A stretch of DNA of 64,000 nt from an uncultured Acidobacteriaceae bacterium (GTDB taxonomy: Bacteria; Acidobacteriota; Terriglobia; Terriglobales; Acidobacteriaceae). This document shows, piece after piece, positions 1,511 through 45,374 of this stretch. The notes under the pieces are model-generated. The model saw nothing but the letters and a program-made list of their open reading frames with translations, did no database searches and was not told the DNA's origin. The position numbers and the translations under genes were made by a program. The stretch is taken from contig CAWBQE010000021.1 in assembly GCA_963790705.1 (NCBI GenBank), positions 12,806 through 76,805 of the forward strand, given 5' to 3'. Each line of letters starts with the position of its first letter. Positions within the stretch are counted from its first letter, which is position 1.

Positions 1511-1604
1511 TAGAGACCTCGTTCCCAGTTCGTCTTAATCCTCCTTACGATAGAATACGCGGCCGACCCATAAAGGCTTCGGCCGTGCGGTCCGTTTGCG
1601 TTTC

Positions 1605-4600
1605 TTAGAAAACAATCTTGCCGCTAACTTGCAGTTCTCGATTGGTGTTTGCCTGGGCACCGTCGACCGATCCGAAGGTGTTCGGGCTATTGATATCGGT
1701 GCTGTTGTACTCATTTAGACCGAAGACCGTATGGTTGAAAAGGTTGAAAGCTTCAGCGCGAAATTCGAACTTAGTCTCGCGCCAGAGGGGGAACGATCGA
1801 ATCACCGATGTATCGAAATTGATCAATCGCTGACCTCGGATAAGACCACGGTACGAATTCCCGAAGGTGTACTGTGCGGGAATCGCGAATGCTGCGGTAT
1901 TGAACCACTCGTTTTTCGACCTGGTGAACCCGGAAAAGGGGTTACCTACCATATTCGCGCGTTCGTAGACGTTGGGATTACCGATATTGGCAACGTCCGC
2001 GCTGTCGACCACGGTCTGGTTCTGCCCGCTGCGGGCGTTGAAGATATTGTTGAGCTGCCAGTTGCCCAGGATGTAGTCGCCGAAGCGGTTGCCGGTGGAA
2101 AATCTCCTGCCCTGGCCGACCGGGACATCATAAATAGTGTTGATAGCGAGCGCCTGAGGCACGTTAGTTCCAGCGTAACCTCTGGACGCGCCGGGGTGGT
2201 ACGCATCCTGCACGGTGAGACCTTCCGAGTTGAACCAACCGTCGTCTGCCGTGTAGCTTTCGGCCCAGGTGTAGGCTACCTGGAACGAGAGGCCACTGGT
2301 ATATCGCTTATCCAATGACACCTGAAGGGCGTTGTAGGTGGAACTTCCGACGCCGTGGTCGTAAAGCGTGTGAGTGGCATAGGGATAAGGCGCCCTGGTT
2401 TGCGGGTCCCCGGGACCCGGGGTGAGCGCGGTGTTGTAATAGCCGCCGATGTTGGTGCGGTGCGAGCCAGAGCCGACATAGTCCACTTTCAAAGACAATG
2501 AATTGCTGAGCTGCCGCTGCACGCCGAAGTTCCACTGCTCAGAATAGGCATTCTTATAGTTGGGGTCGAAGAACCAATCGTTGTCGTTATATGGGGTGGC
2601 AGGCGGGAACAGCCCGCCCCCCGGGGTGCCGCCAAAGGGGTTCTGGGAGGTAACGGTCGGCGTCGGCGACGCGGTGGAGGGTACGTTGACTTGCGGGAGG
2701 TCCGGATTACCGATATCAGGCCACGAACCCTCGGCGTTCTGCACCATCTGGGTAACCGCCGCCCAGTTGTCGTAGACGATGCCGAAGGCGCCGTGAACCG
2801 CTGTTTTGTCGTCAACCTTATATGCAAAGCCGACACGCGGCCCGTAGTTGGTATGCACGTTGTGGCTTATCCTGCCGTTGGGACTCACCACAACATGGGG
2901 GGGCAGAGTTCCATTTCCCGGAATGCAGGGAGCGAAGCCGCGGACTGAGCACGGAGGCGGCAACAACTGCACGATGTAGGTGCCGTTGTCCCAATCCCAA
3001 TCGCCGGTTTCAGGCCCGCCATTCTTGCCGATGGTCTTACTGGCCCCGTACCCCGGTATGAACGTGTAGTCGTAGCGCAAACCATAATTCAAGGTCAGTC
3101 TGGGGGTTGCCTTCCAGGAATCCTGCAGGTAGGCGCTTAAGACACCGCCAGGCCTTTCCAGTTCGTCGACGTTGCGGCGTTGTGCGGACTGGGGAACGTT
3201 AAGGAGGAAGGATGCCAAGCCGTTGCCTGTCGCCTGACTGGGAAATTGGGGCGCAGACGTTTGCGGATCGTTAAAGCCGAGTTGGGTGTAGTTGATGGTA
3301 CTGGCAAAACCGGTAGAGACCCACCCCAGCCCGAACTTCACAGTGTGGTTACCGATAATTTGCGTAATGCTGCCTTGGTAGGCGGTGTTGTCCGTAGCGA
3401 AGGGTGTGAGGTTGATTTCCTCGCCGTTTGCGCTGATCCCCTGAATGCCCAACTCTGGAACGAAGTCGCGCCCCGAGGAGAAATTGCCGACGAAAGAGGC
3501 GTCCCAGCCAACGGCACTGATGAGATCGGCCGTGGGAGCTCTAAATTCGTTGACGCCGTTGTCGAGCACTTCGGTGTGCGAGCCTTGGAACTGCGCGATG
3601 CGCGTGGGGCCGAAGACATGGACCCAGCTGCCGCCAAAATTGCGCGAATTGATGATCAGGCTGCTAGGTAACGACGGAAGACCGGCGGACTGAGTGAGCG
3701 TCGAGTCGCTGAAGCTATAGCGGAACCATGCAGAATCTTTGGACCCGAAGGTCTGGTCGAGGCGGACACTGAATTCGTTGAACTTTTGCACCTGGGGAGT
3801 GGTGTCGATCGCGTTCGCCGAGAACGAGCCGTTGCCCGTAGGATTGAAGAAGGGGCCGGCCGTAGGGTAAATAAATTTTGCCCAGGTGACCATTCGCTGA
3901 TCGATACGATCCGCGGGAATCTGATTGTTTGGAAACGCAGTACGAGTGTAACCCGTAGGGGTCGCTACGGTACTGAAAGGATCGTAAATCGGGTTTTGCC
4001 CGTTGTCCGCCTCATCGCCGGCCAGTTCCGCGGCGGTGGGCACCAGGAGGTCGTTATCCGACGCCCTGGAATAGCGCCACCCTTGATAAGCCCCAAAGAA
4101 AAAGGTTTTGTTTCTGCCGTTGTACAGCTTGGGGATGACGACTGGACCGCCGACGGCTCCACCGAATTGGTTCTGATGGAAGAAGGGCTTGGACTGGCTT
4201 GTCGGAAGAAAATAGTTGCGCGCATCGAAGGCCGTGTTGCGCAGGTAATCCCACGCGGCGCCATGCAACTCATTGGTGCCGCTCTTGGTGACCACGTTCA
4301 CGACGCCGCCCAGCACGGAGCCAAATTCCGCGTCGTCCGTGTGAGATACCACCTTGAATTCCTGAATGGCATCAATGATCGGCGCAACCGCATACGTGCT
4401 GTTGATGGCAGCATAGTTGGGGAGGCCATCAGTGAGAAAGTAATCGCTGCGATTGCTCTGCCCGTTGATGGCAGGAAAGGTATAGTCCGAACCGATCGCA
4501 ATGGCGGAGCCGAAGCCGCCGCCAGCGATATTGGTGCCATTTTGGGCGGTCGATATAGCAACGACACCCGGAGTGAGCGCCAGCAGGGCGGTGAAATTTC

Positions 4601-5042
4601 GACCGTTCAGAGGGAGGTCGTTGACCTGCTTGGTCGCAATCACGGTGCCCAAGTTGGCGTTCGTCACGTCCAGCTGGGCGGCCGCCGCCTGAACGTTAAC
4701 CACCTGTGTTTCCGTTCCCACGGTGAGAGCAAAGTCGAATGTGGCGGCCTGGCCCACCGCCAGCAGGAACGGCGCTAACTTTTGCGAGCTGAATCCCTTA
4801 GCAGTGGACTCCAGAGTATAGTTCCCAGGCGCTATGCTGACAAAGCCATACGCACCCGCTTCGTTGGTGGTCGATGTACGCTCGACCGAGGTATCGACAT
4901 TCGTTAACACGATGGAGGCACCGGGGATTACGGCCCCGGCGGGGTCTCGGATCACACCGTTGATCGACGCGGTTGATACTTGAGCGACCGCGGAACCCGC
5001 AAGAAGCAGAAGTAGAAAACTGAGGATGCCCACCATTTGCAT
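1605..5042 (-). CDS. TonB-dependent outer-membrane receptor with an N-terminal carboxypeptidase-regulatory-like domain
   Basis: This is the 1187-aa ORF 1605..5168. The likely start is the internal MQMVGILSFLLLLLAGSAVAQ signal peptide at 5042. It is followed by INGVIRDPAGAVIPGASIVLTNVDT..YTLESTAKGF (CarboxypepD_reg fold), plug-like LNGRNFTALLALTPGV, and the C-terminal ...LQVSGKIVF with a terminal aromatic residue typical of OM beta-barrels. Confidence 0.85.
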   Translation of the reverse strand: MQMVGILSFLLLLLAGSAVAQVSTASINGVIRDPAGAVIPGASIVLTNVDTSVERTSTTNEAGAYGFVSIAPGNYTLESTAKGFSSQKLAPFLLAVGQAATFDFALTVGTETQVVNVQAAAAQLDVTNANLGTVIATKQVNDLPLNGRNFTALLALTPGVVAISTAQNGTNIAGGGFGSAIAIGSDYTFPAINGQSNRSDYFLTDGLPNYAAINSTYAVAPIIDAIQEFKVVSHTDDAEFGSVLGGVVNVVTKSGTNELHGAAWDYLRNTAFDARNYFLPTSQSKPFFHQNQFGGAVGGPVVIPKLYNGRNKTFFFGAYQGWRYSRASDNDLLVPTAAELAGDEADNGQNPIYDPFSTVATPTGYTRTAFPNNQIPADRIDQRMVTWAKFIYPTAGPFFNPTGNGSFSANAIDTTPQVQKFNEFSVRLDQTFGSKDSAWFRYSFSDSTLTQSAGLPSLPSSLIINSRNFGGSWVHVFGPTRIAQFQGSHTEVLDNGVNEFRAPTADLISAVGWDASFVGNFSSGRDFVPELGIQGISANGEEINLTPFATDNTAYQGSITQIIGNHTVKFGLGWVSTGFASTINYTQLGFNDPQTSAPQFPSQATGNGLASFLLNVPQSAQRRNVDELERPGGVLSAYLQDSWKATPRLTLNYGLRYDYTFIPGYGASKTIGKNGGPETGDWDWDNGTYIVQLLPPPCSVRGFAPCIPGNGTLPPHVVVSPNGRISHNVHTNYGPRVGFAYKVDDKTAVHGAFGIVYDNWAAVTQMVQNAEGSWPDIGNPDLPQVNVPSTASPTPTVTSQNPFGGTPGGGLFPPATPYNDNDWFFDPNYKNAYSEQWNFGVQRQLSNSLSLKVDYVGSGSHRTNIGGYYNTALTPGPGDPQTRAPYPYATHTLYDHGVGSSTYNALQVSLDKRYTSGLSFQVAYTWAESYTADDGWFNSEGLTVQDAYHPGASRGYAGTNVPQALAINTIYDVPVGQGRRFSTGNRFGDYILGNWQLNNIFNARSGQNQTVVDSADVANIGNPNVYERANMVGNPFSGFTRSKNEWFNTAAFAIPAQYTFGNSYRGLIRGQRLINFDTSVIRSFPLWRETKFEFRAEAFNLFNHTVFGLNEYNSTDINSPNTFGSVDGAQANTNRELQVSGKIVF

Positions 5043-5233
5043 ACCGGGGAGCAACCTGCTGCTTTGTTTGACGAAACTCTGCGCGCAACGTTCCATATAC
5101 CACCTCTCCAAAAGTGACATTCCTCTTAAAGCGACGTGCCGTGACCTTTTTCGAATCTGGCCCAGCAACCCCGTAAATCTGTAACGTTCCTTGTGGTTCT
5201 TCGTGGTTCTTCAAATCCTGGATGAGAGCTTAC

Positions 5234-6256
5234 TTACGGATAAGCCTTTCCAGGGTATGGACGTGGAGTGATGTCGGCATCCACTAACCCCAAAGCCCAA
5301 CGAATCCCGCCGGTGTAAATCTCTTGTAGGTGGGGATCGTCAAGACTGGTGTCGATATGCCCGAAGGTCGAGTACCACACGCGGCCTTTGCCGTATTTTT
5401 TCGCCCAGACGATCGGGTAGTCGCCATCGGTACGAACTCCGATCAATTTGGCGACCCGGGCACGATATGCCTCGTCAGACATTTTGCTTCCCTCTTTTTC
5501 CGCGTTCAGCGAAGCCAGCTTCTCAGCGAACTTGCTTGAATCCAGGCGGAGGATCACGCGATCGATATCCCGCGAAAAGTTCGGCCCCAGGATGGTGTAT
5601 TGATCGCGGAAGGAAAATTCGCGAGGAACATTCTTCAGCCCTGGAAAGGCCGGATCCTCGACCACGATAGGCAGCGTAATCGATGGGAACTCGGCGACCA
5701 GATCGCCGCCGACCATTTCCGCATACTCCCGCCACACGATGCAGCCCCCGCCGTTCGACGCGTGACCGCCGATAAAACCTTTGCCGTCGTCGTGCACAAA
5801 CGAGAGCAGATCGTCCTTTTGCTCGTCGGTGATCTCCCAGGAGCCGCCGCCCATAAAGAAGACGGCGTCAAAGTCATCAAGGGTCCGGGCATTGCGACCG
5901 TAATTGATATCTTTGGTGAGCAGCTTGAAATCGGTTCGGATCACCGTGATCCAGTCGCCGGACTCACGGCCAAGCCGTTCGATCGTAGCCAGGGTATGGC
6001 TACTCGCATCGTGATGATAGGAGTTACGCTGGCGGTTATACCACACGTCAGCGTCAGCAATGGCAAGGAGCTTTTTCTTGCCCGGCCAGGTATCTTCGAC
6101 AAATCGCGGGCGCGCAGGGTCCGGTGTAGGTGGGTGCGTACGTTCTGGCGGAGGCGGAGTCGTTGCGTTTGTCGCCTGCACGCCCGTCAGGGCGTCCGCG
6201 GCCCGCGGAGTGAACGACGTGACGGCTAATCCTTTGAGAAGTTCACGCCGGTCCAT
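5234..6256 (-). CDS. ThuA (trehalose-utilisation) domain protein, exported (Tat-like RRELLK signal)
   Basis: N-terminus MDRRELLKGLAV. The ThuA-like body reads FDAVFFMGGG..GFIGGHASNGGG..WREYAEMVGG..VWYSTFGHIDTSLDDPHLQEIYTGGIRWALG. GAAGGAG lies upstream of the ATG. Confidence 0.8.
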   Translation of the reverse strand: MDRRELLKGLAVTSFTPRAADALTGVQATNATTPPPPERTHPPTPDPARPRFVEDTWPGKKKLLAIADADVWYNRQRNSYHHDASSHTLATIERLGRESGDWITVIRTDFKLLTKDINYGRNARTLDDFDAVFFMGGGSWEITDEQKDDLLSFVHDDGKGFIGGHASNGGGCIVWREYAEMVGGDLVAEFPSITLPIVVEDPAFPGLKNVPREFSFRDQYTILGPNFSRDIDRVILRLDSSKFAEKLASLNAEKEGSKMSDEAYRARVAKLIGVRTDGDYPIVWAKKYGKGRVWYSTFGHIDTSLDDPHLQEIYTGGIRWALGLVDADITPRPYPGKAYP

Positions 6257-6388
6257 GGTTCAAATACTCCTTCTGCTCGGAATAAGATCTTCGTCACTAT
6301 TCCCAGCTCTTCTGTGCAAGCTTGATTCCCGGCCCTAACCTTTTTTCCATCGCGCAAAATCACACTACAAATCACAATACGGCGCCGG

Positions 6389-7201
6389 TTACATTAATGT
6401 TCCCGCCGCCCACGCCGTGCCCCTGCGAATCAGCTCCCCCACCTGTGGTACCTGCAGAGCCTTCACATCGTGCCCCAAAGGAGTGTTGAAAACCCGGCCC
6501 TTCTTGTAGTGAACCGTCAAAGCCATCGGGAAGTCAGCGTCTTTTACGTTCGAGTGGGCAGTGGCCAGGATTTGAACCGGGATGGAGCCGTCTTTGTTGT
6601 CGTAGTACAGTTCATCGTCGGTCTGAAAGTCGGCCATTCCCTTGGTGATGGGACTGTCGTGGTCGACGATTTTGACGGTGAAGGGCCCACGCTTGTCGTG
6701 GTGGAGCTGCTGCGAACGGCCCACGATGTTGTTATATTCCGGCCAATACGGAAAGGCGTCGTTAGCCCAATGAGTCGTGACCAGACCCTTGCCTTTGCCC
6801 AGGAACTTTAGAAGGTTAGCTTTGTCTTTTTCATCCTGTGCCAGCGGTTCAGCGTTTCTGAAATCAAAAATCAGCACATCGTATTTAAAAATCTCAGGGG
6901 TTGCGAGAAAATTGGGATCGGCTTCGATCGTGACTTCGAAATCAAAGTCCGGTTTACCGGCCTCCAGAATCGTTTTCAATTCTGCGGATGTATCTTTCCA
7001 CAGATGACCGGGATGAGTATCTTCACCGGTGACAATCGCGACGCGCGTGGTTCGCTTGGTGTGCTGCGCATGGCCGGAATGGCCGAAGGCAAGCGCAACG
7101 ACCGCGCCGGCGATGAGAAGCATTCTCACAGCTGCGTTCACGCCGGCTCCAGCTTTCTGCGTTGCTCGGCTTGGTGATGCTTGCTGGCTACCAAATGTCA
7201 C
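6389..7201 (-). CDS. ThuA domain protein, exported (second paralog)
   Basis: Signal-like MLLIAGAVVALAFGHSGHAQ, then YDVLIFDFRN..GKGLVTTHWAND..VFNTPLGHDVKALQVPQVGELIRRGTAWAAG. The GTG start at 7201 has AAGGTGA upstream. An internal ATG at 7123 is an alternative start. Confidence 0.8.
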   Translation of the reverse strand: MTFGSQQASPSRATQKAGAGVNAAVRMLLIAGAVVALAFGHSGHAQHTKRTTRVAIVTGEDTHPGHLWKDTSAELKTILEAGKPDFDFEVTIEADPNFLATPEIFKYDVLIFDFRNAEPLAQDEKDKANLLKFLGKGKGLVTTHWANDAFPYWPEYNNIVGRSQQLHHDKRGPFTVKIVDHDSPITKGMADFQTDDELYYDNKDGSIPVQILATAHSNVKDADFPMALTVHYKKGRVFNTPLGHDVKALQVPQVGELIRRGTAWAAGTLM

Positions 7202-7228
7202 AGTCTCTTCACCTTCAAACGTCAGGTC

Positions 7229-8917
7229 TTAGTTCAGAACAAACGCATACACCATGTCACCCGCGCCCACGAGGATGTACTGGTGCCCGTCGAGCATGTA
7301 GGTCTCTGCTGCGCTGGTGGGATGGATTTTTGCGTACCACAGTGGTTTGCCGTTCAGGGGATCACGCGCGACCAGGTCCCCATTCGGATCAGTGGCGAAG
7401 AGCAACTTGCCCGCCGTCGTCAGCAGACCAGGAAAGTCGCCTCGAACATCAATACCGCCAACGCCGGCATAGCGGTGACTCCAGACGATCTTGCCCGTCT
7501 TGTAGTCGACGGCAACCAACCGGTTGCCACGTGAGCCCATATCGGCGCCGGGAACGCCGGTAAGGCCCATGGCTCCCTTTGGATCGAGTGTGCCGAGGTA
7601 ACGCATGCTATAAGTCTCAGCGACATGAGCATAGAAGAGCTTGGTCACCGGATCATAGCTTTGTGGGGTCCAGTTGGTGACGCCGAGGCCATTTGGAGAA
7701 ACAATCGCTCCGCCGATATCGTAGTCTTTCGCTGGATTGCGGACAGGTTCGCCGCGCTTGTCGATGCCCATATCCCAGTTCACAGTGTCGGTGATTTTGC
7801 TGGTGACGAGGTGTTCGCCGTTTACCCGATCGAGGGTGAAGAAAAAGCCATTGCGAGCCAGCGTAGCTACCAACTTACGGGGCTTGCCGTTGAACTCTCC
7901 GTCGAACAGCACAGGAGTCTGTGCCGAGTCGTAGTCATGCGTGTCGTGCGGAGAGGTCTGGAACCACCATGCCAGCTTTCCTGTGTCCACATTGACTGCG
8001 AGCAGAGAACAGGTGTAGAGATTGTCACCGGGACCGCGGGTTTGCGATGTGTAAGCGGGCGAGGGGTTGCCGGTTCCGAAGATATAGAGGTGGGTCTCTG
8101 GATCATAGGAACCCGGAGCCCAGACATTGCCCCCGCCGTGAGCCGCGGCATCGATGTTGGCCCAGGTTTCTGCGCCGGGGTCGCCCTTTTTCATGGGAAC
8201 GGTATAGAACCGCCACTGCAGATCACCGGTGTCAGGATCGTAAGACTCCAGCATGCCGGGCTCGTCCATGTCGTCCCCGGTGCCGACCAGAAGATGATTG
8301 CCGACCACAATGGGCGACATCGACGAGAAGTATTGCAGGTCAAAGCTGGCGATCTCTTTGCGCCACCGCTCGTTGCCCGTCTTGGCATCAAGACACAGAA
8401 GGTAGTTGTCGGGGGTTTCAAGATAGACCCAGTTGTGCCACATGCCCACGCCACGGTTGCCCGTGTGCGTACCACCCTTGGTTTTCCAGTAGTAGTGCCA
8501 GATCTCATGGCCATCCCGCGCATCCAGTGCCCACGCATTGTCGGGTGAGGCTACATAGAGGATGCCCCCTACCTGCAGGATGGAGCCCTTCACGGTTACC
8601 GGGTAGCGTGCATCCACACCCTGCTCTGTTCCGCCAACAATCACTGGAGGCGTGCCGGCCGGGCCCTCCGGTCCGACAACCACGTGGGTCGCCCAGGCGA
8701 GCGAAAGATTCTTCACATTGCTTTGGTTCAGTTGCGTAAGGGGGCTGTAGCGGCGGCCGGAGTAATCACCGGAATAAGTCAGCCACGCATCCTGAGGAGG
8801 ATTGAAGATCTGCTGGGGATCAAGACCCTTGGCTGGGTCGAACCACTGGGCCATCGCTAGCCTGGGCGCGACCAGCATGCCAAGAATAAAAATGAGATTC
8901 CTGATTCCTGTGATCAT
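7229..8917 (-). CDS. PQQ-dependent-dehydrogenase-like eight-bladed beta-propeller (quinoprotein), copy 1
   Basis: Signal MITGIRNLIFILGMLVAPRLAMAQ. Motifs are WLTYSGDYSGRRYSPL, GNRGVGMW, YDPETHLYIFGTGNPSP, WWFQTSPHDTHDYDSAQTPVLFD, LARNGFFFTLDR and a C-terminal YMLDGHQYILVGAGDMVYAFVLN. The start overlaps the upstream cytochrome c stop (ATGA at 8914-8917). Confidence 0.85.
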   Translation of the reverse strand: MITGIRNLIFILGMLVAPRLAMAQWFDPAKGLDPQQIFNPPQDAWLTYSGDYSGRRYSPLTQLNQSNVKNLSLAWATHVVVGPEGPAGTPPVIVGGTEQGVDARYPVTVKGSILQVGGILYVASPDNAWALDARDGHEIWHYYWKTKGGTHTGNRGVGMWHNWVYLETPDNYLLCLDAKTGNERWRKEIASFDLQYFSSMSPIVVGNHLLVGTGDDMDEPGMLESYDPDTGDLQWRFYTVPMKKGDPGAETWANIDAAAHGGGNVWAPGSYDPETHLYIFGTGNPSPAYTSQTRGPGDNLYTCSLLAVNVDTGKLAWWFQTSPHDTHDYDSAQTPVLFDGEFNGKPRKLVATLARNGFFFTLDRVNGEHLVTSKITDTVNWDMGIDKRGEPVRNPAKDYDIGGAIVSPNGLGVTNWTPQSYDPVTKLFYAHVAETYSMRYLGTLDPKGAMGLTGVPGADMGSRGNRLVAVDYKTGKIVWSHRYAGVGGIDVRGDFPGLLTTAGKLLFATDPNGDLVARDPLNGKPLWYAKIHPTSAAETYMLDGHQYILVGAGDMVYAFVLN

Positions 8918-9834
8918 TTCACGGTCACCAGATATGCGGTCACGTCGTGAACATCTTTGTCGGCGATCTTCTGCACCAGCTCGCGATGGGGCGCAAGCGG
9001 ATCATGAATTTCAACTTTGGGTATGTCGCCGTCACGTCGGAACCCTTGCGGGCCGTCCGTTTCATTCGTAAGACCCACGTAAAAGTCGCTGATGCTGACA
9101 AGATTGCCTTCGATCTTCTTGCCGTTGGGTAACGTCACGGTCACAGTGATAGGAGGAAGATGCAGTCCAAGAGCCTTCGCGGAGTATCTGCCAGAGCCGC
9201 CTCCCTCGCCCCCGGGTAGCAACCAGGTCTGTTGCAGGGTTTTGGGCTCTGTAATGCGCGAGCCTATCCCGGCCAGGTCCCCGGTGGCCGAATGGCAGGA
9301 GGCACAGGACTTTTGAAAATAGGCCGCGCCGGCCTCGGCGTTCCCGGTGAGAATGCTGATCTCAGCCGAGTTGTACATAACCGTCTTGCCAGTGGCATTA
9401 AAGTGGTGTAGCCATGCTGCTACCTCTTTTATTTGCTCGTCGGTGATGTCGACTCGAGGCATGCCCTGCTGGGCTCGCCCACCATGAACGATCGGCGCTA
9501 TCAGTTCGCCGTTTTGATCCTGAAGAACCACCGCCGACCGCAACAAATTCGGTCCCACCTCGCCGCCTCTGGCATCGGAGCCATGGCAGAAAGAACAACT
9601 CACACCGTAGGTCGTCTTACCCCCATCGATTACTTCCTGGGGATATTTCGGCCGGTCCGGAAAATCCAGCGTCTGTCCTTTGATCGCAATGGTTCCTGGA
9701 TCCTTGCGGCCGTTTTGATTCTGAGCCTTCACCTGAAACTGCACCAGGAACAGCGAGCCCAAAAGAGCTGCCAGGCCGATCGCTCCGGCTGGTTTTTTCC
9801 CACGCTTCAACTTAAAGCAGGCTCGGGGTCTCAT
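8914..9834 (-). CDS. Dihaem c-type cytochrome with a conserved non-haem C-terminal domain, copy 1
   Basis: Signal peptide, then two CxxCH motifs (CSFCH, CASCH). The C-terminal ITVTVTLPNGKKIEG...DKDVHDVTAYLVTVK is shared with the two other copies. Confidence 0.85.
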   Translation of the reverse strand: MRPRACFKLKRGKKPAGAIGLAALLGSLFLVQFQVKAQNQNGRKDPGTIAIKGQTLDFPDRPKYPQEVIDGGKTTYGVSCSFCHGSDARGGEVGPNLLRSAVVLQDQNGELIAPIVHGGRAQQGMPRVDITDEQIKEVAAWLHHFNATGKTVMYNSAEISILTGNAEAGAAYFQKSCASCHSATGDLAGIGSRITEPKTLQQTWLLPGGEGGGSGRYSAKALGLHLPPITVTVTLPNGKKIEGNLVSISDFYVGLTNETDGPQGFRRDGDIPKVEIHDPLAPHRELVQKIADKDVHDVTAYLVTVK

Positions 9835-9839
9835 CGGTT

Positions 9840-10898
9840 CTACTCACCCTTTCCCTGCTCGTCGGTAAATGGGTCCTTTTTCATTCCCCGCCATTCGACT
9901 GACAGCTTTTGCAGCAGGTCGGTGGGCGTGACTCCATCGTGAACGACAACCCGGTAACGGAGGATCAAAGGTTTACTCGGATGGATGGTCAGCGGGCCGA
10001 ACGAGGTGATACAGGGATTTATCATCCAGAGCACGTTGTGCCAGCGGGTGGGTGGATTCATAGGATGGTCCAGAACGGCCACTCCAACCAGCTTTCCGTC
10101 GCTCTTCAGTTTGATGGAGTAGTCATACCAGGGCTCAGAGGGCCAATCCGAATTAGGCAACGAGTAATGCGGGCCTGGAAGGTCCACCTTGCCGGAGGCA
10201 TTGGAGTAGTAGGAATCCCCATACTTCTGAGCCTGGAATGCGAAGCCGCCAAAGGCTGTCTGGTCGATCACGAAATCCACGACTGGAGCGATGCGGTAGG
10301 TGATGTCGATAACGTAGACGCCATCGCGCTCAGCGACGGCGACATTGTCGGTCTCTTCGACCATCTTCTGGTCATCGACAAACCAGTCATTGTCGATTTC
10401 CAGCTCAGCGTGCTTGTCGTCGGCGTCGAGCACACGTATATCGCGGTTCCTGATACTGCGGCCATCGCGAGGAGCATAAAGGCCCCAGGCCCAGAAGTCG
10501 GCCCGCTTTACGTTGAAGGCGCCTTCGAGGTGGTTGGGAGGAAGCTTGGAAGTATCGACCGGAGTGCGGAATTCAGAATCCAAAATGCCCAGAAAAATAC
10601 CGCGATGCCACGGATGATCGTCGGGTGCGGCATTTGAGACCCTCTCTCCAGAAGGAGTATTTACCGGGTCAAAGTATGCCGCGCTAGGCGACTGAAGATT
10701 GGCTGGAATCTTTGTCTTGTATTCAAAGACGATCTGACCCTGCGGCGTTTTCAGCTGCATACCTTCGCTGGTAGGCGTGAGCGTGTAAGACGCCGAGGCT
10801 GCGCGGGCGTGCATGGTGCAGACAAGCGTGCTCAGGACGAACGTTGAACGGGCTGCTGTCGCAAGAGCTTCGCTCAAATTCCTCGGATACGATGCCAC
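9840..10898 (-). CDS. PmoA-family / DUF6807-like protein, exported
   Basis: AYFDPVNTPSGERVSNAAPDDHPWHRGIFLG...ADFWAWG matches my memory of the DUF6807 core (YxHPxxTPxGxxxT..DHxxHxGxxF..DFW). The GTG start at 10898 is preceded by GGGGAGA. Confidence 0.65.
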   Translation of the reverse strand: MASYPRNLSEALATAARSTFVLSTLVCTMHARAASASYTLTPTSEGMQLKTPQGQIVFEYKTKIPANLQSPSAAYFDPVNTPSGERVSNAAPDDHPWHRGIFLGILDSEFRTPVDTSKLPPNHLEGAFNVKRADFWAWGLYAPRDGRSIRNRDIRVLDADDKHAELEIDNDWFVDDQKMVEETDNVAVAERDGVYVIDITYRIAPVVDFVIDQTAFGGFAFQAQKYGDSYYSNASGKVDLPGPHYSLPNSDWPSEPWYDYSIKLKSDGKLVGVAVLDHPMNPPTRWHNVLWMINPCITSFGPLTIHPSKPLILRYRVVVHDGVTPTDLLQKLSVEWRGMKKDPFTDEQGKGE

Positions 10899-11079
10899 TT
10901 AAATCTCCCCGTACCTGCAGAGGTTTTCTATCTCGTGGCCGATCCCTGTTCGATCGGCTTCAACCTTTACGTTCGTTGAAACCGCTCTTCACCCGCACCA
11001 AACTGCCAAGTGAACGAAGCCCGGCAATCTGGGCTCGCATCGTTGGGCTGGCCTTCCACCGGAGAGCACGATATGCCTC

Positions 11080-11099
11080 AATTGACATCGTTGTCAATT
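11080..11099. promoter_or_regulatory. Candidate LacI-family operator (20-bp palindrome centred on CG) overlapping a TTGACA -35-like hexamer
   Basis: The sequence is aattgacatcgttgtcaatt. The half-sites AATTGACATC and AATTGACAAC match at 9 of 10 positions. It lies 181 bp upstream of the DUF6807 gene start and downstream of the LacI gene, both on the minus strand. Confidence 0.45.
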
Positions 11100-11345: not shown

Positions 11346-12359
11346 TTATGCCTGACACCCGCAGGACTGTCGAACGATCAAGCTCGTGGGTAAAACGACA
11401 GCGCGGGAGTGCCCTCCACGGCCCCGGAGGCGTTCGAACAGCAATTTTGCGGCTTCGCGTCCCAGCATCTCGGCAGGCTGTTGAACAACCGATAGACCGG
11501 GGGTTAACATGTCCGCGAGTTCAAAATCGTCGAAGGAGAACATTGGTATATCGCAGCCCGCCTTTTTCCCGAGTTGCCGCAAAGCGCGCAAAGTGAGCAT
11601 GGTGCAAACCCAATTCAAGCTAAAAATCGCGTCCGCCTTCTGAACGCCAAAGACTTCCTTTGCGAGCCATTCGGCAACTAACGCACTCTCGTGCTCCACA
11701 AGACACACTCTCGGCTCAAGGGACGCTCCTTTCATCCCAGCGCGGTAGCCGGCTGCCCGTTCTCTGCAGGTATAAAGGTACGGGCGTGCGCCAATGGCGA
11801 CAATCCTGCGCAAGCCATGACCCACCATGTGCTCGGTTGCCTCTCGTGCGCTGCTACGATTGGTCACGGTCACGGAATCGAGGTCGGCATTTCGCAGCAA
11901 CTGGTCGAAGGTCACGGCATGAACGCCCGCGGGGATGATGTCGCTGAAAGAATCGGTTCGACTATCAATTGGAGCGATAATCAAACCATCTATTTGCCGG
12001 CCGACTAAGCCTTCGATTTCAGATCGTTCCAGACCAACTTCCCCACCCGAACTAGCAAGAATCACCACATAACCATTGGTCCGTGCAACTTCCTGAACAG
12101 CGTGCACCGCATTGGCGAAGAATGGGTCAGAAAGATTAGGCACAATCATTCCGATAGCTGCGGATCTCTTTGCCTTGAGTCCTCGAGCCAGCTCGTTCGG
12201 CCGATAGCCGAGCCGTTCCATGACGGTCCGGATTTTTGCGGCCTTTTCCTGGCTGACGTTTTTGGATCGATTCAGAACTCGGGATGCTGTTTTGAGCGAG
12301 ACGCCGGCTTCTCGAGCGACGTCCACCAATGTGGGAACTTGCGTTCTTTTTACAGCCAT
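11346..12359 (-). CDS. LacI family transcriptional regulator
   Basis: N-terminal HTH PTLVDVAREAGVSLKTASRVLNRSKNVSQEKAAKIRTVMERLGYRPNELARGLK, followed by a periplasmic-binding-protein-like sugar domain. Confidence 0.9.
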   Translation of the reverse strand: MAVKRTQVPTLVDVAREAGVSLKTASRVLNRSKNVSQEKAAKIRTVMERLGYRPNELARGLKAKRSAAIGMIVPNLSDPFFANAVHAVQEVARTNGYVVILASSGGEVGLERSEIEGLVGRQIDGLIIAPIDSRTDSFSDIIPAGVHAVTFDQLLRNADLDSVTVTNRSSAREATEHMVGHGLRRIVAIGARPYLYTCRERAAGYRAGMKGASLEPRVCLVEHESALVAEWLAKEVFGVQKADAIFSLNWVCTMLTLRALRQLGKKAGCDIPMFSFDDFELADMLTPGLSVVQQPAEMLGREAAKLLFERLRGRGGHSRAVVLPTSLIVRQSCGCQA

Positions 12360-12384: not shown

Positions 12385-13695
12385 TTAGTGAAGCCAATTC
12401 CCACCTGCTCTTTCTGGTGCGGCGACAGAGCCAAGGGCTGTTCCCCGGGTTTCCGGATACCAAAGCAACACAACGCCGATCTGCAGGACCATGGCCAAGG
12501 AGAAAAAGAAAAAGGCGCGAACAGGTGAGGCATGTTGCATGATCGGAAAGATCGAAACCAGAATAGCATTCGCAATCCAATTCACCGACGAACCATATCC
12601 CTGGCCTGCGCCACGCGTTCCCGGCGAAAACAACTCGCTGAGATATACCCAGACAACCGTTCCTTGAGAAAACGCAAAGAACACATTGTAGGCAACGAGA
12701 ATTGACAAATAGAATAGCGGACCGAGGTGATGTGGGATCGCAAGGCCCAGGCAAAGCAGGCAGACAGCCATTCCGGCAGAGCCCCAAAGCAGAAGAGGCT
12801 TCCGTCCCAACTTATCTACAAACGCCATTCCGAGCACAGTCGTAGCCAGACTGATAAAGGAAATCAGAACTGTGTAAGTGTGCCCTAACAAGACGCCAAG
12901 ACCAGCGCTGGACAGGATATCCAACAGGTACAACAACAAGATGTTCACGCCAGAGAGTTGATTGAAAATCGCGATGCTCGTCGCCAGCAGAATGGGACGT
13001 GTGTTCTTGCGGCAAAATAGTTTTTCACTGCTGAAAGCTCTATCGAGGTCGGACGAGTTCATGTCCTGGCTGTCGCCAGGGCTGATTCTGGAGTTCCCCT
13101 GGGAAATAAACTGCAGCAGGAAAACTAAAATTACTGCGGGGATGACTCCTAATCCCAGGCACCATCTCCATTCGGTTCCTGTTGCTGCCGAATGTGTCAC
13201 TACTAATCCGAGGGAGAACGCTACCAGTACACCTGCGCCCACCTGAACCTGGAACAGGCTGACCAGGCGACCGCGAAGAGCGATTGGAGCTATTTCAGAA
13301 AGATAAAGCGGACAGGCGACGGTAAAGCCCCCAATAGACATGCCGGCCAGGAATCTCATGACCGGAACAAGAATCCACGCCGGCGAAATTGGCAGTGCGA
13401 TCCCGACAGCCGCAAGCGCGTACAGGACTGAACATCTCGCAATCAAATCTCGCCGGCCGACGCGGTCTGCTATCCGCCCCGAGAGAAGAGATCCGCAGAC
13501 AGTTCCCCACAAAGAAGACGACACGGTCAAACCGAAGACCATAGGGGAAAGGTGTAATTGACCTCTGAGGCTTTGGGTTGAAGCAGAAAGCGCTCCAAGA
13601 TCGTACCCGAAAACGAATCCCCCGAACGAGCCAACTAATGCGGCCCTAACCAGGCGCTTGTTCAACTGATATATATCAATCCCAGCTCGTCGCAA
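12385..13695 (-). CDS. Sugar porter family MFS transporter
   Basis: 12-TM pattern with GGFVFGYDLG, GRIADRVGRRDLI and the PETRG motif. The apparent start is TTG. Confidence 0.85.
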   Translation of the reverse strand: MRRAGIDIYQLNKRLVRAALVGSFGGFVFGYDLGALSASTQSLRGQLHLSPMVFGLTVSSSLWGTVCGSLLSGRIADRVGRRDLIARCSVLYALAAVGIALPISPAWILVPVMRFLAGMSIGGFTVACPLYLSEIAPIALRGRLVSLFQVQVGAGVLVAFSLGLVVTHSAATGTEWRWCLGLGVIPAVILVFLLQFISQGNSRISPGDSQDMNSSDLDRAFSSEKLFCRKNTRPILLATSIAIFNQLSGVNILLLYLLDILSSAGLGVLLGHTYTVLISFISLATTVLGMAFVDKLGRKPLLLWGSAGMAVCLLCLGLAIPHHLGPLFYLSILVAYNVFFAFSQGTVVWVYLSELFSPGTRGAGQGYGSSVNWIANAILVSIFPIMQHASPVRAFFFFSLAMVLQIGVVLLWYPETRGTALGSVAAPERAGGNWLH

Positions 13696-13778: not shown

Positions 13779-14708
13779 TCAGCCAATGAGCGTATCCAAC
13801 TCCGCAAAGCTCGCAGTACCCTCCATGGGACCTTTGCGCGTCACGGCAATCGCACCACTGGCGCAGGCATAGCGCAGCGAGTGGTCGACCGATTTGCCTT
13901 CTTCGCGGCATGCCGCGTAGGTGGCGCAGAAGCAGTCGCCGGCGCCAGTGGGGTCGACCTCGCGGACCGCGAACGCCGGTACGTCCAGTCGGCACGACCG
14001 GTCGTAATAGGTGCAGCCCGCGCTGCCGTGCTTCACGACGATCTCTCGAATTCCGAGGGCGAGTAGCTGCTCGATGGCCTCGGCCTCCGTTTGCGCATCC
14101 ACGAGCAGGGCCACCTCGTCGCCGCTCGGCAGGAACACGTCGGTCTGTTCGAGGACTGATCGCAACGCTTCCCGAATGCCCGCGCTTCTGAGTATCTCCG
14201 GCCGGATGTTCGGGTCGAAGGAGATTACCCCACCTCGGCGCTTCACCATGCCGATCGCCTTACGGACGGCTGCGGTGATTCCCGGAGAGAACAGTGATGA
14301 ACCCATGACGTGAAACCACGTGCAATCGGCGACCACCGACTCGGTGATCGCCGACGCTGAGAGGCGGCCGGAAGCGCTATTGGCAATGTTGAAGATGAAG
14401 TGGCGCTCGCCCGTCTCCGCGTAGGTGACAAACGCGCTTCCGGTGACCGCGTCGGCGAGCAAGGCGACGGCACTCGTGTCGACACCGTCCCGGCGCAGGC
14501 GGTCGATGTTCAGCCACCCGAAATCATCGTCGCCTACGCAGCCGATAATCCCGGCCGGACGTCCGAGACGGCCCACCTGGTCGATGAAGATGGCGGGAGC
14601 GCCGCTCGCGAAAGGTCCCACCAGGGTGCCCGGCGAGCGGAAGCTCTGGCCGCGCTCGGTCGCCATGATCTCTACCAGGATCTCCCCGATTGTCATGATC
14701 CGGGCCAT
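13779..14708 (-). CDS. PfkB-family carbohydrate kinase
   Basis: MARIMTIGEILVEI.., GGAPA-like N-terminal motif and the C-terminal DPTGAGDCFCATYAA signature. The ATG at 14708 has AAAGGAG 7 nt upstream. The ORF-track start at 14756 is probably too long. Confidence 0.85.
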   Translation of the reverse strand: MARIMTIGEILVEIMATERGQSFRSPGTLVGPFASGAPAIFIDQVGRLGRPAGIIGCVGDDDFGWLNIDRLRRDGVDTSAVALLADAVTGSAFVTYAETGERHFIFNIANSASGRLSASAITESVVADCTWFHVMGSSLFSPGITAAVRKAIGMVKRRGGVISFDPNIRPEILRSAGIREALRSVLEQTDVFLPSGDEVALLVDAQTEAEAIEQLLALGIREIVVKHGSAGCTYYDRSCRLDVPAFAVREVDPTGAGDCFCATYAACREEGKSVDHSLRYACASGAIAVTRKGPMEGTASFAELDTLIG

Positions 14709-14880
14709 GCGCAGGCTCCTTTCAGGGGCGACCCTTGGTCTGCACGTCGATCGCAAGCGCGCACAGAATAACGCATTTCCGAGTTGTAGAGTTACTCGAG
14801 GCCGGAAAGCGGACGGTTGACTGAATCACAAAGTATTTGCTTGCAGCGTTGGTAAGGTGGGTATATTTGAAGGACACATT

Positions 14881-15780
14881 ATGCATCGCCGAAGATTTTT
14901 GCAGACTGCTGCCGCTTTGACTGTTATGTCTACTGTTCGTGCCCGCGCTAATACTCGTTTACCAATCGCGATGGCGGTTGAGTACAACATGCTGCCCCCA
15001 AAGATGTCCATCATGGAGCGGTTTGAGCTTGCCAAGGATTGCGGGTTCGAACGGATAGAGTGCCCCACCACCCGCGATCAGGGGGATGCGGAGAAAATCA
15101 AGGCCGCCTCAGAGAAAACCCGGCTGCCAATCCATTCCGTCATGAATATGGACCACTGGGAATATCCGTTTTCCTCGGCCGACCCGGCGGTGGTGGAACG
15201 GAGCCTGGACGGTGCGCGCGTCTCCATTCGAAACGCGCATTTGTGGGGAGCTACGACGGTGCTTCTGGTGCCAGCCGTGGTGAATGCCCAGACGACGTAC
15301 AAAGAAGCCTATGAGCGGTCTCAACCGGTCATCCGCAAACTGATTCCTTTGGCGGAGGAATTGAATGTAACCCTGGCTCTGGAGGAAGTGTGGAATAAGT
15401 TTCTGCTAAGCCCGCTGGAGTTTGCCCGCTATATCGACGAGTACAATTCGCCGCGCGTGAAGGCTTATTTTGATGTGGGAAATGTAGTGCTGTACGGCTA
15501 CCCGCAGGATTGGATTCGGACGCTGGGCAAGCGGATCGCCAAGCTACACATCAAGGACTTTTACTTCAGGCACGATAAGGGCACCGACAAATCAGTGGCT
15601 GCCTGGGTGCCCTTGGGTGAGGGTGACATCGACTGGACAGCCGTATATGAGGCGCTTCACGACATCGGTTATCAAGGTACAGCGACCCTGGAGCTGGACC
15701 CGGGAGATGCAGCCTATCTGAAAGAGATGCACCGGCGATTTGGACTGATACTCACGGGGGAAATGCCTAAGAAGGCTTGA
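14881..15780 (+). CDS. Xylose-isomerase-like TIM-barrel protein (annotated class 'sugar phosphate isomerase/epimerase') with a twin-arginine signal
   Basis: MHRRRFLQTAAALTVMSTVRARA is a Tat signal. The AP_endonuc_2-type body reads FERIECP..LALEEVWNKFL..YFDVGNVVLYGYPQDWIRTLGKRIAKLHIKD. AAGGA lies upstream of the ATG at 14881. Confidence 0.8.
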   Translation: MHRRRFLQTAAALTVMSTVRARANTRLPIAMAVEYNMLPPKMSIMERFELAKDCGFERIECPTTRDQGDAEKIKAASEKTRLPIHSVMNMDHWEYPFSSADPAVVERSLDGARVSIRNAHLWGATTVLLVPAVVNAQTTYKEAYERSQPVIRKLIPLAEELNVTLALEEVWNKFLLSPLEFARYIDEYNSPRVKAYFDVGNVVLYGYPQDWIRTLGKRIAKLHIKDFYFRHDKGTDKSVAAWVPLGEGDIDWTAVYEALHDIGYQGTATLELDPGDAAYLKEMHRRFGLILTGEMPKKA

Positions 15781-17507: not shown

Positions 17508-17839
17508 CTCTTAGATAATTGAAGCTCAATCGATCTTCCCAAGTTGACAGCACACACCGCACACCAGAAAAGCGTGCAGACGAAGCCAGCGTAAAAGCGA
17601 CGCGATAGCCTCAGCCACTGGCAAAAGTGACAGTTTGCAGAGGAAAATCGCCTATGCGCCAGATTGCGCCAAATCACGGGCGCAAGACGGAGACCGCGCA
17701 TATATCCTCACGCCGCTCTGGTTACAACTTCCGGTTAGAACTCCTAAATATCGGAGACAGACAGACGTCGTCTTGATCGTTGCTCACGAGCAACCCGGCA
17801 GCGCCGAAATTCTGCGAGGACCAGAAATTTGATGAGACC

Positions 17840-25238: not shown

Positions 25239-25595
25239 ATGAACTATAGTCTCTTCATGCGATTCACACGTATCTGTGTCCTGCTGCTGGCCGGCGTCGC
25301 ACCCTTGTCCGGCTTCGGACAAGAGCCGGTTTCGCAGTTACCCGATGGGCCGAACCGCGAAACCGTGCAACGCATCTGCTCGGGGTGTCATTCGGTCCAG
25401 ATGTTTACGGGGCGGGGGATGACGCGGGAACAATGGGGCGGCGTTGTCTCCAACATGATCGGCCGGGGAGCAAAGATCTCGGACGAAGAGTTCGACGAAG
25501 TCGTCAACTATCTTGGCAAAGCTTTGCCGCCTGCCCAGCAAGGCGGTGAGGCGCCGCGGTTGCAAAGGCCGCCCCAGTGCATAAGAAAAGCCTGA
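25239..25595 (+). CDS. Small monohaem c-type cytochrome with a signal peptide. It may be the N-terminal domain of the next ORF.
   Basis: MNYSLFMRFTRICVLLLAGVAPLSGFG is a signal peptide, followed by CSGCHS. The ORF overlaps the next ORF by 19 nt in another frame. Confidence 0.6.
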   Translation: MNYSLFMRFTRICVLLLAGVAPLSGFGQEPVSQLPDGPNRETVQRICSGCHSVQMFTGRGMTREQWGGVVSNMIGRGAKISDEEFDEVVNYLGKALPPAQQGGEAPRLQRPPQCIRKA

Positions 25596-26338
25596 TTGAC
25601 CAGGTAGGCGCAGATGACAAGCAGATCGTCGACGAAGATGCCGCGGCACGGGGTAGGACCGTGTATATCGCGCAATGCATCACCTGCCATGGAACACGGG
25701 CGCGGGGAGGCGAGCGCGGCGCCGACCTGGTGCGATCGTTAGTGGTTCTTCATGACCGCTACGGAAGCACCATCGGTCCTTATCTTGCGCAGGGGCACCC
25801 GGCGGGAAAACCAGTCGCGTTGACGCAGGAGCAGATTGTGGATTTGTCCCATTTCCTGCACCAGCAGGTGGGTGACACTTTGCGAACCGGACCTTACAAC
25901 AACGTGCTGAACATCCTGGTGGGCGATCCCAACGAAGGAAAGGCCTTCTTCTATGGAGCAGGAGGGTGCAGCCATTGTCACTCACCGACGGGTGACCTGG
26001 CGCACATCGCCAGCAAATACGATCCGCCCGGTTTGCAGTTGAAGGTGGTGTTTCCGCAGAACCGTGCAGTCGCGCGCGAGGGAAGTGAGAGCCCGCGCAA
26101 GCCACTGACGGTTACGGTGACCACGGCGTCCGGCGAAAGCGTGACCGGGGTGCCGACGGAGCTTGACGATTTCAACGTTTCGCTCCACGACGCCTCCGGC
26201 CGATATCACAGCTTCGCACGCGGACCCGGGGTCAAAGTGGAGAAGCACGATCCTTATGCCGCGCACGTGGCGCTACTCGACAAATACACCGACAAAGAAA
26301 TACACGATGTAGTGGCCTACCTGGAGACCTTGAAATGA
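25577..26338 (+). CDS. Dihaem c-type cytochrome, copy 2. It has no signal peptide of its own.
   Basis: CITCH and CSHCH, with the C-terminal LTVTVTTASGESVTG...DKEIHDVVAYLETLK. The frame is closed by a TGA at 25547-25549, so no upstream signal peptide is possible in this frame. Confidence 0.75.
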   Translation: MHKKSLIDQVGADDKQIVDEDAAARGRTVYIAQCITCHGTRARGGERGADLVRSLVVLHDRYGSTIGPYLAQGHPAGKPVALTQEQIVDLSHFLHQQVGDTLRTGPYNNVLNILVGDPNEGKAFFYGAGGCSHCHSPTGDLAHIASKYDPPGLQLKVVFPQNRAVAREGSESPRKPLTVTVTTASGESVTGVPTELDDFNVSLHDASGRYHSFARGPGVKVEKHDPYAAHVALLDKYTDKEIHDVVAYLETLK

Positions 26339-44516: not shown

Positions 44517-45374
44517 TTCAAGGTCACCAGGTAGGCAGTCACATCGTGGATGTCTTTATCCGTATATTTCGGAAGCAGGTCCTTATGAGCCTTCAGCGGG
44601 TCCTGGATCACGACCTTGGGCGAGCCGTCTTTCCGCGTGAACGTGCGGAATGCGCCATCGCTTAATTTCAAGGTGACAAGGAAATCGTCGATGCGAACCA
44701 ATTGCCCTTGCAGGCTTTCACCGGAAGGCAGAGTCACCGTAACCGTGGCAGCCGTCTTGTCGTTCTTCTGACCTTTTGCCCCGCCCATCACCCACAGGTT
44801 TTGCAAGCGCTTTCGGGCTGGTGACCCTGGACGCGATCCCGCGCAGGTCACCTTCCGGGGAGTGGCAGCCTGCACAGGTCCTGGCAAAATATGCGGCACC
44901 GTCGCTCGCATTGCCGACCACGATATTGACAGGTTGTTGCTCACTCGGGGGAACTCCTGCTCGTCCTATCGTAGCCACTACACTGCGCACATACGCGGCC
45001 ACGGCCTTTGCGTCCTCGGGGCTCAGTGGAATTCTAGGCATTCCCATAGATTGGCGCGCGCCTTGAATAATGGGAACAATCGATTCGCCATCGACGTCGG
45101 TTAACGCAACCTGGGAGCGCAACAAATTTGGACCGCCCATGTCGCCGCCCCGCAGATCGGGTCCGTGACAACCCTGGCAGCTAACGGCGTAAAGTGCTTT
45201 TCCGTGGGCCACGACCGCAGGATCGATGGGTGGCCGCTGCTGTCCAGGAACGAATCCCCCGACAGGCTCTTGCGGACCCTCTCCCGCAGCGGGCGTTTGA
45301 CCCCAACACCAGTACACAGAACAGATCATCGCCGCCAAAAACGTCGCAGCGAACAAACGATACGTGACGCGCAT
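44513..45374 (-). pseudogene. Dihaem c-type cytochrome, copy 3, split by one frameshift near 44801-44810
   Basis: ORF 44718..45374 carries the signal peptide plus CQGCH and CAGCH, up to ...RVTSPKAL. ORF 44513..44944 in another frame continues QNLWVMGG...ATVTVTLPSGESLQG...DKDIHDVTAYLVTLK. Removing one base (ctt-g-caa) restores colinearity with copy 1. Confidence 0.8.

Follow-up and report, generated by a model that had tools for sequence, protein, structure and literature searches.

The DNA considered here, referred to as the window, is a stretch of 64,000 nucleotides (nt) from an uncultured Acidobacteriaceae bacterium (GenBank assembly GCA_963790705.1, contig CAWBQE010000021.1, forward-strand positions 12,806 to 76,805). 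Its minus strand carries a run of five co-directional genes, which encode a DUF6807 protein, a dihaem c-type cytochrome, a pyrroloquinoline quinone (PQQ)-type propeller dehydrogenase and two ThuA-domain proteins, and which a sequence-only reading had taken for a candidate periplasmic module that oxidizes sugars or glycosides. Domains were assigned by Pfam and NCBIfam profile searches of approximately 50 open reading frames (ORFs) of the window; all five proteins were assigned the expected domains (DUF6807, cytochrome c, PQQ propeller, ThuA and ThuA), and the ORF list agrees with the earlier coordinates and spacings throughout. The N-termini of all five resemble export signals, of the Sec type or of the twin-arginine translocation (Tat) type where specified. 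The genes and the sites upstream of them are as follows.

9840..10898, minus strand: exported DUF6807 protein, 352 residues (PF14100, 1.9e-35)
8914..9834, minus strand: exported dihaem c-type cytochrome, 306 residues (Pfam and CxxCH motifs)
7229..8917, minus strand: exported 8-bladed PQQ-type propeller dehydrogenase, 562 residues (PF01011, 6.9e-70; TIGR04528, 700 bits)
6389..7201, minus strand: exported ThuA-domain protein 1 (ThuA1), Sec-type signal, 270 residues (PF06283, 2.1e-29)
5234..6256, minus strand: ThuA-domain protein 2 (ThuA2), Tat signal, 340 residues (PF06283, 5.5e-25)
11082..11097, minus strand: candidate LacI-family operator, a 6+4+6 palindrome with central CG
11068..11097, minus strand: sigma-70-like promoter, TTGACA-18-TATCGT, 10/12 match

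The five-gene operon and its putative promoter

From the DUF6807 gene to the ThuA2 gene the gaps are 5, -4 (an ATGA overlap), 27 and 132 nt, and a terminator scan found no terminator-like hairpin in any of them; the five genes are presumably co-transcribed. The cytochrome has CxxCH motifs at residues 80 and 177 and a beta-rich insert in its second haem domain. Its translational coupling to the quinoprotein, proposed earlier, accords with the overlap of its stop codon with the quinoprotein start by 4 nt and with the constancy of the pair among relatives: the cytochrome gene lies directly upstream of the propeller gene in 76 of the 78 loci with sufficient flank (loci are designated here by L numbers).

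The palindrome TTGACAtcgtTGTCAA (TTGACA-ACGA-TGTCAA; 11082-11097) lies upstream of the operon and stops 181-184 nt before the GTG codon at 10898, and its left arm is the -35 hexamer of the sigma-70-like promoter. It occurs once in the window against 0.14 times expected, which is weak evidence by itself because 13 of 100 shuffles also matched. The identical pattern is found at the equivalent position in seven related loci, and when six regions are aligned, the palindrome stands out together with the -10 segment, GGCATAT(T/C)GTGCT, as a conserved island amid flanking intergenic DNA that has diverged; the island is present also in three loci without DUF6807, the intergenic DNA of which is otherwise unalignable. 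Such an island in diverged DNA, including loci that lack DUF6807, is good evidence for the promoter and operator of the operon. Because promoter-like and terminator-like sites in the region number at or below chance, no site other than the one at the conserved palindrome was relied on. No riboswitch was matched in an Rfam scan of the 447-nt leader. As in operons of LacI/GalR regulators, a palindrome with a central CG lies near the promoter and is kept in relatives; LacI binding is predicted, and the operon is probably repressed by the adjacent LacI-family protein. The candidate LacI operator that had been placed 181 bp upstream of the first gene looks real and is conserved.

The quinoprotein and its partners in other genomes

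With 700.4 bits (cut-off 650) the propeller passes the NCBIfam model TIGR04528, "acido-empty-quinoprotein group A"; with 352.4 bits (cut-off 480) it falls short of TIGR03075, the methanol/ethanol family of XoxF, MxaF, ExaA and PedH. TIGR04528 names a family only, the library output attaching no function, partner protein or substrate to it; its cut-off is passed by all three propellers of the window (two more are described below) and by those of L169 and L170. Active-site columns were judged from alignments with structures in the PDB, the closest of which by sequence are quinohaemoprotein alcohol dehydrogenase IIB and the lanthanide enzyme PedH, and from an alignment of 97 family sequences. The PQQ-stacking tryptophan, W266, is invariant (97/97); the metal-ligand asparagine, N284, is found in 93 sequences, D325, D328 and D330 in 96-97, R355 in 91, and N415-W416 in 93-94. 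The motif H-D-T-H-D-(W/Y/F)-D, which is HDTHDYD at residues 324-330 of the window protein, holds the catalytic aspartate and the extra lanthanide-type aspartate; the latter, the additional Asp of D-x-D, is D330 and occurs in all 97. The metal-ligand glutamate is replaced by conserved Asp216/Asp218. The vicinal Cys-Cys is missing: the aligned segment, WKTKGGTHTGNRG, has no cysteine, nor do the corresponding segments across the 97 family members, in which a conserved G-G-T-H-(I/T)-G-N-R-G occupies the position. At the level of sequence, then, the residues of a PQQ quinoprotein (stacking Trp, Arg and Asn contacts, metal ligands) and the extra aspartate of a lanthanide-dependent dehydrogenase are present; the near-invariance of these columns indicates purifying selection on the active site, and the PQQ pocket and the metal site, with its lanthanide-type Asp-x-Asp, appear to be intact. 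Assignment of the propeller as XoxF was rejected because of its score below the family cut-off and the missing Cys-Cys.

ThuA1 and ThuA2 score 103.7 and 89.3 bits with PF06283 (gathering threshold 33.4). ThuA2 has the twin-arginine motif DRRELLK, and its AlphaFold (AF2) model has the ThuA fold, matching the ThuA-like structures 4pxy and 4jqs (TMt 0.74); the PDB matches of both proteins are structural-genomics ThuA-like entries only, which offer no functional lead. In five of five distant contexts (L169-L173) a homologue of the ThuA2 type (53-61% identity) directly follows a cytochrome-propeller pair; one of these contexts is the cytochrome-quinoprotein-ThuA trio of the cultured Paracidobacterium acidisoli (L169). 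Four of these contexts show the 4-nt overlap of cytochrome and propeller, a second, divergent ThuA is present in two, and an outer-membrane protein of the same type as in the window follows ThuA in two (L170, L172). This invariable placement marks the trio of cytochrome, quinoprotein and Tat-exported ThuA as a conserved unit within the family, and the three proteins very likely function together. The propellers of L169-L171 are only 43-49% identical to the window propellers, and by this comparison the ThuA genes of the window lineage go with another propeller clade than those of L169-L173. In L169 (2923-3960, minus strand) and L170 (3261-4295 and 9295-10338, plus strand) the trio is flanked by exported proteins some 345 residues long; they have no Pfam or NCBIfam match, and the upstream two, which are similar in N-terminal sequence, may represent a further partner.

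ThuA has been found with dehydrogenases of other kinds: it adjoins a GMC oxidoreductase in the breakdown of the iminosugar deoxynojirimycin (PMC11494336), and inspection of the neighbourhood of a ThuAB-type locus placed it next to Gfo/Idh/MocA. It seems to be a general-purpose partner for dehydrogenases of sugars. On plasmid pNL2 of Novosphingobium aromaticivorans (L175, 3685-12510) a ThuA-domain gene occurs with genes for a triose-phosphate isomerase (TIM) barrel and a GPH symporter; genes for a TIM barrel, DUF6379 and DUF1080 are about 3 kb away and no annotated dehydrogenase is nearby, the cluster being of the ThuA/keto-glycoside type.

The DUF6807 protein scores 123.2 bits with PF14100 (gathering threshold 27), and its homologues share an invariant DDHPxHRG motif. 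Structure prediction was needed because a sequence search of the PDB gave no significant match. [quoted passage not shown] Homologues lie beside cytochrome-PQQ pairs of another clade, the propellers of which are 33-37% identical to those of the window and outside TIGR04528, in three gene orders: cytochrome-PQQ-DUF6807 (L088), cytochrome-DUF6807-PF06439 protein-PQQ (L087), and PQQ-PF06439 protein-DUF6807-short-chain dehydrogenase (for example L112, L113, L116, L123 and L124). Co-occurrence was counted in the 36 loci that measure 6 kb or more and are not close to that of the window. A protein with PF06439 ("3-keto-disaccharide hydrolase") plus FG-GAP was found in 22 of these, a PQQ propeller in 18, a short-chain dehydrogenase in 18 and an outer-membrane protein in 16; at least one of the PF06439 protein, the PQQ propeller and the short-chain dehydrogenase was found in 32. 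TIM barrels also cluster repeatedly with DUF6807.

Conservation of the neighbourhood was assessed with a propeller-centred scan of one genome per species, which returned 80 loci, all of them in Acidobacteriota. The full set (LacI, transporter of the major facilitator superfamily (MFS), DUF6807, cytochrome, propeller, ThuA1, ThuA2, outer-membrane protein) is found only where the propeller is 91-98% identical to that of the window, in the range L001-L011 and L027 plus the metagenome contigs L093, L095 and L096, and DUF6807 is missing from L005, L009 and L027. With propeller identities of 81% and 80%, respectively, L012 is without ThuA2 and L013 has the pair and the outer-membrane protein only. 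The neighbour seen most often in distant loci is a xylose-isomerase-like TIM barrel that carries a Tat-type signal and whose gene directly precedes that of the cytochrome or directly follows that of the propeller; a TIM barrel of the kinds queried (Tat-signal c3 and c15 types and the cytoplasmic c18 type) is adjacent to the pair on the same strand in 24 of the 80 loci and within 4 kb of it in 30. MFS transporters of the Nuc_H_symport type recur as well, as do ROK regulators, a second Tat TIM barrel, and Gfo/Idh/MocA together with a cytoplasmic TIM barrel. Conservation across Acidobacteriota, which the sequence-only reading had made a test of its proposal, thus holds for the sub-modules (the pair, the Tat-ThuA placement, the clustering of DUF6807 and the adjacency of Tat TIM barrels) and not for the exact five-gene set, which belongs to one lineage. 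Cultured carriers are Paracidobacterium acidisoli, Terriglobus albidus and isolates of Edaphobacter/Granulicella.

Flanking genes and other features of the window

The genes around the operon and the two other cytochrome-propeller pairs of the window are listed here.

1605..5168, minus strand: outer-membrane (TonB-dependent-type) protein, CarboxypepD_reg + OMP_b-brl_4 (PF25183, 2.1e-198)
11346..12359, minus strand: LacI-family repressor (Pfam/NCBIfam), adjoining the operon in close relatives too
12385..13695, minus strand: sugar-porter MFS transporter (PF00083, 1.8e-73), kept in close relatives
13779..14756, minus strand: PfkB kinase with a tagatose-kinase score (NF049991, 438 bits against a cut-off of 420)
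14857..15780, plus strand: xylose-isomerase-like TIM barrel, Tat signal, ketose-3-epimerase-like (PF01261, 3.2e-41)
25577..27939, plus strand: second pair, cytochrome c (25577-26338) and TIGR04528 quinoprotein (26335-27939), 4-nt overlap, 824 bits (823.6)
42825..45374, minus strand: third pair, quinoprotein (42825-44516) and frameshifted cytochrome (about 44520-45374), 748 bits (747.5)

The outer-membrane protein gene, which is co-directional after ThuA2 and was absent from the earlier gene list, has its likely true start near 5042 and is syntenic in L001, L003-L008, L012, L013 and L027. The LacI regulator, the sugar porter and the PfkB kinase upstream on the same strand were confirmed by Pfam and NCBIfam. 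The kinase has no counterpart in any relative, giving no tblastn match in any fetched locus, and its gene (13779-14756) is extra DNA compared to L001-L003, L007, L011 and L093. The sulfatase was not found in the loci of relatives either. Thus both are placed outside the conserved unit, and inclusion of the kinase in it was rejected.

The TIM barrel at 14857-15780 has the Tat motif RRRFLQ and weak PDB sequence matches to UlaE and D-tagatose 3-epimerase. Its location, its opposite strand and its Tat signal are as described in the sequence-only reading. In the six relatives just named it is followed directly, on its own strand, by orthologues of the second pair (95-97% identical), so that its tie to the five-gene operon is weakened and it probably belongs to the operon of the second pair. 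In the window about 9.7 kb (15906-25595) separates the two, a block that the same relatives do not have and that contains genes for two sulfatases, a formylglycine-generating enzyme, a Ser/Thr kinase and a PD40 protein. The ties of ThuA1, of the kinase and of this TIM barrel to the operon are weaker.

The three window propellers share 46-55% identity, the second-pair propeller being 47% identical to that of the operon. The third pair is flanked by a Nuc_H_symport MFS transporter (41515-42771) and a TIM barrel (45485-46339); its cytochrome (minus strand) has the C-terminal beta-rich domain and the end ...HDVTAYLVTLK in another frame, through either an assembly indel or decay to a pseudogene. 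An OMP_b-brl_4 gene at 49405-52791 (plus strand) is split into at least three ORFs, and the FG-GAP/VCBS (CRTAC1-like) gene at 1-1600 (minus strand), downstream of the operon's outer-membrane protein gene, changes frame; together these last two cases suggest indel errors typical of a long-read metagenome-assembled genome. Three copies of the Acido-Lenti-1 RNA motif (RF01687) on the plus strand (28512-28557, 28578-28623 and 29133-29178; 41-54 bits against a gathering threshold of 37) lie in the gap that comes after the gene of the second quinoprotein. At 29270-35528 (minus strand) are Planctomycetes-type genes (PSCyt1/DUF2231, DUF1501, PSCyt1-PSCyt2-PSD1), which add to the genes for exported haem proteins in the region.

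Proposed carbohydrate oxidation and competing explanations

In the periplasmic 3-ketoglycoside route, a 3-keto-glycoside is made either by a cytochrome-c-linked dehydrogenase, LacABC, which depends on flavin adenine dinucleotide (FAD), or by ThuAB, and is then cleaved by a DUF1080/PF06439 hydrolase, followed by epimerases, a reductase and a transporter (PMC9007349, PMC8121099). The operon resembles the ThuAB loci of Sinorhizobium and Agrobacterium in that a ThuA-domain gene lies beside a dehydrogenase gene, with a sugar transporter and a repressor in the locus; the product of ThuAB, a trehalose/disaccharide 3-dehydrogenase, is a 3-keto-disaccharide (PMC8121099). The window ThuAs share only about 25-30% identity with ThuA-domain proteins encoded on plasmids of alphaproteobacteria. 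Whereas ThuB is a Gfo/Idh/MocA enzyme that uses nicotinamide adenine dinucleotide (NAD), the window operon has no such partner: in agreement with the sequence-only reading, none of the approximately 50 ORFs scanned matched PF01408 and a Gfo representative had no tblastn match in the window. Unlike in ThuAB, all of the components carry export signals, and a PQQ propeller with a cytochrome c takes the place of the redox partner. The LacABC systems of Caulobacter, Agrobacterium and Bacteroidota likewise oxidize glycosides in the periplasm and pass electrons to a cytochrome c subunit, and their loci also hold DUF1080 (PF06439), sugar epimerase/TIM-barrel and transporter genes (PMC9007349). Relatives of the window DUF6807 protein sit beside PF06439 proteins and PQQ propellers in a similar way. 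The catalytic subunit of LacABC, however, is an FAD-dependent GMC oxidoreductase and not a quinoprotein, and LacABC loci as described do not include ThuA or DUF6807. No PF06439/DUF1080 hydrolase was found in the window, where the sole tblastn match (64-651) is to FG-GAP repeats of a different protein. Genes for cytochromes c4/c551 adjoin 6-bladed lanthanide-type PQQ enzymes in carbohydrate loci; these enzymes, in a survey that included Acidobacteria, share with the operon periplasmic carbohydrate oxidation and an adjacent cytochrome, but they are like sGDH and pyranose dehydrogenase while the window protein is 8-bladed, and ThuA or DUF6807 partners were not described for them (bioRxiv 10.64898/2026.07.10.737718).

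The best reading by analogy is that the operon would be a PQQ counterpart of ThuAB or LacABC, in which a PQQ enzyme occupies the slot of the NAD or FAD enzymes found elsewhere. With a probability that we put at roughly 0.55, the operon oxidizes a carbohydrate-type substrate (a sugar, glycoside or cyclic polyol) in the periplasm and feeds the electrons to cytochrome c. The case for such a module is made by the fixed cytochrome-quinoprotein pair, the placement of Tat-ThuA, the clustering of DUF6807, the lack of Gfo/Idh/MocA and the conserved operator; comparison with other genomes links such pairs, in a carbohydrate or keto-sugar context, with DUF6807 and with Tat TIM barrels. From gene order, domains, export signals, conservation of the active site and of the operator and promoter, and pairwise recurrence, we infer the nature of the substrate (a carbohydrate) and of the product (keto, possibly 3-keto), the cofactor content, and what ThuA and DUF6807 do. 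The substrate would enter the periplasm through the TonB-dependent-type outer-membrane protein, a CH-OH group would be oxidized by the TIGR04528 quinoprotein, and the electrons would pass to the translationally coupled dihaem cytochrome c and on to the respiratory chain. The Tat-exported ThuA-type protein would be a fixed partner to the dehydrogenase in the way that ThuA is to ThuB; the mutarotase-like DUF6807 protein may bind or convert the sugar or the keto product; and the sugar-porter MFS transporter would carry the product into the cell. Searches of the literature on DUF6807, ThuA and acidobacterial quinoproteins yielded no account of ThuA or DUF6807 as partners of an 8-bladed quinoprotein, in line with the sequence-only reading; the propeller family itself is already curated as TIGR04528.

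Several observations weigh against this reading. The exact five-gene set is confined to one Acidobacteriaceae lineage, in which DUF6807 is dispensable. ThuA1-type homologues (62-69% identity) occur elsewhere in unrelated contexts, and the context of ThuA1 is kept only in the close lineage and L012; thus ThuA1 offers no conserved link, and of the periplasmic module originally proposed the parts that stand are the pair, Tat-ThuA, the DUF6807 clustering and the operator. Scans of the window found no PF06439 protein, short-chain dehydrogenase or Gfo/Idh/MocA reductase, and PF06439 proteins and TIM barrels are broad families. The nearest solved relatives of the propeller by sequence are alcohol dehydrogenases, the Foldseek TM-scores of the DUF6807 model are low, and the curated name of the propeller family contains the word "empty", which most likely refers to hosts without PQQ synthesis.

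The pair might instead be a lanthanide-type alcohol or aldehyde dehydrogenase with its cytochrome, like XoxF, ExaA or PedH, to which ThuA, DUF6807 and the sugar genes are unrelated by substrate. The window protein shares with XoxF-XoxG, ExaA-ExaB and PedH-PedF the propeller superfamily, the PQQ and metal ligands including the extra Asp typical of lanthanide enzymes, and a dedicated c-type cytochrome; its best PDB matches are alcohol and methanol dehydrogenases; and surveys find many lanthanide-type PQQ enzymes in Acidobacteria, many of the 8-bladed ones being classed as XoxF3 or alcohol dehydrogenase type 8 (PMC10875860; bioRxiv 10.64898/2026.07.10.737718). It differs from them in its methanol/ethanol family score (352 against 480), in the substitution of G-G-T-H for the vicinal Cys-Cys and of Asp for the metal-site Glu, and in a cytochrome that is dihaem, has a beta-rich insert and is encoded upstream with a 4-nt overlap. 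Neither XoxJ nor genes for the handling of formaldehyde were found in the window, and the neighbours that recur in distant genomes are of carbohydrate type (ThuA, TIM barrels, DUF6807, PF06439, sugar transporters, LacI, ROK), which makes a simple alcohol or aldehyde substrate unlikely.

It is also quite unlikely that the accessory proteins serve cofactor supply or maturation, the outer-membrane protein importing PQQ or a lanthanide and the Tat-ThuA protein acting as an assembly or chaperone factor for an "empty" quinoprotein. The family name, the frequency of TonB-dependent-type proteins among the neighbours, the invariable position of ThuA2 next to the propeller, and the scavenging of PQQ documented in phyla without PQQ synthesis (PMC12124388) would all accord with such roles. 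However, the outer-membrane protein is of the CarboxypepD_reg/OMP_b-brl_4 type, which is very abundant in Acidobacteriota, and nothing ties it to PqqU; ThuA is genetically linked to sugar oxidation in other systems (PMC8121099); LacI and the sugar porter control or flank the operon; and DUF6807 is predicted to have a carbohydrate-binding fold. That the five genes are a recent mosaic without common function, in a rearrangement hot spot marked by three paralogous pairs and by insertions, is improbable. It would explain why relatives with 94-98% identity differ in whether they have DUF6807, why the tagatose kinase (TagK) gene and the 9.7-kb sulfatase block are inserted in the window strain only, and why the ThuA genes accompany a different propeller clade here than in L169-L173, but it must contend with the independent recurrence of each pairwise link in distant genomes and in varied gene orders, with the tight spacing of the genes and the gaps free of terminator-like hairpins, and with the single conserved promoter/operator upstream.

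In soils, Acidobacteriota rank with the most abundant bacteria, and the numerous PQQ-type propellers that they encode are as a rule taken for methanol or alcohol dehydrogenases. If carbohydrate oxidation is the correct reading and the pairs oxidize sugars or glycosides in the periplasm together with ThuA and DUF6807, both of these role-less families would gain a function and glycan breakdown of the 3-ketoglycoside type would gain a PQQ-based branch. The existence of cultured carriers makes the idea directly testable. Lanthanide use would then be tied to carbohydrate turnover and not to methylotrophy alone, and counts of "XoxF-like" genes in soil metagenomes would need a different interpretation. 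A bolder extension, possible though doubtful, is that the TIGR04528 quinoprotein with Tat-ThuA and the dihaem cytochrome would constitute a third class of periplasmic sugar/glycoside 3-dehydrogenase, dependent on PQQ and probably on lanthanides, beside the NAD-type ThuAB and the FAD-type LacABC, and that DUF6807 would be a new enzyme of keto-sugar processing; were this so, lanthanide-dependent respiration of carbohydrates would be a common trait of soil Acidobacteriota.

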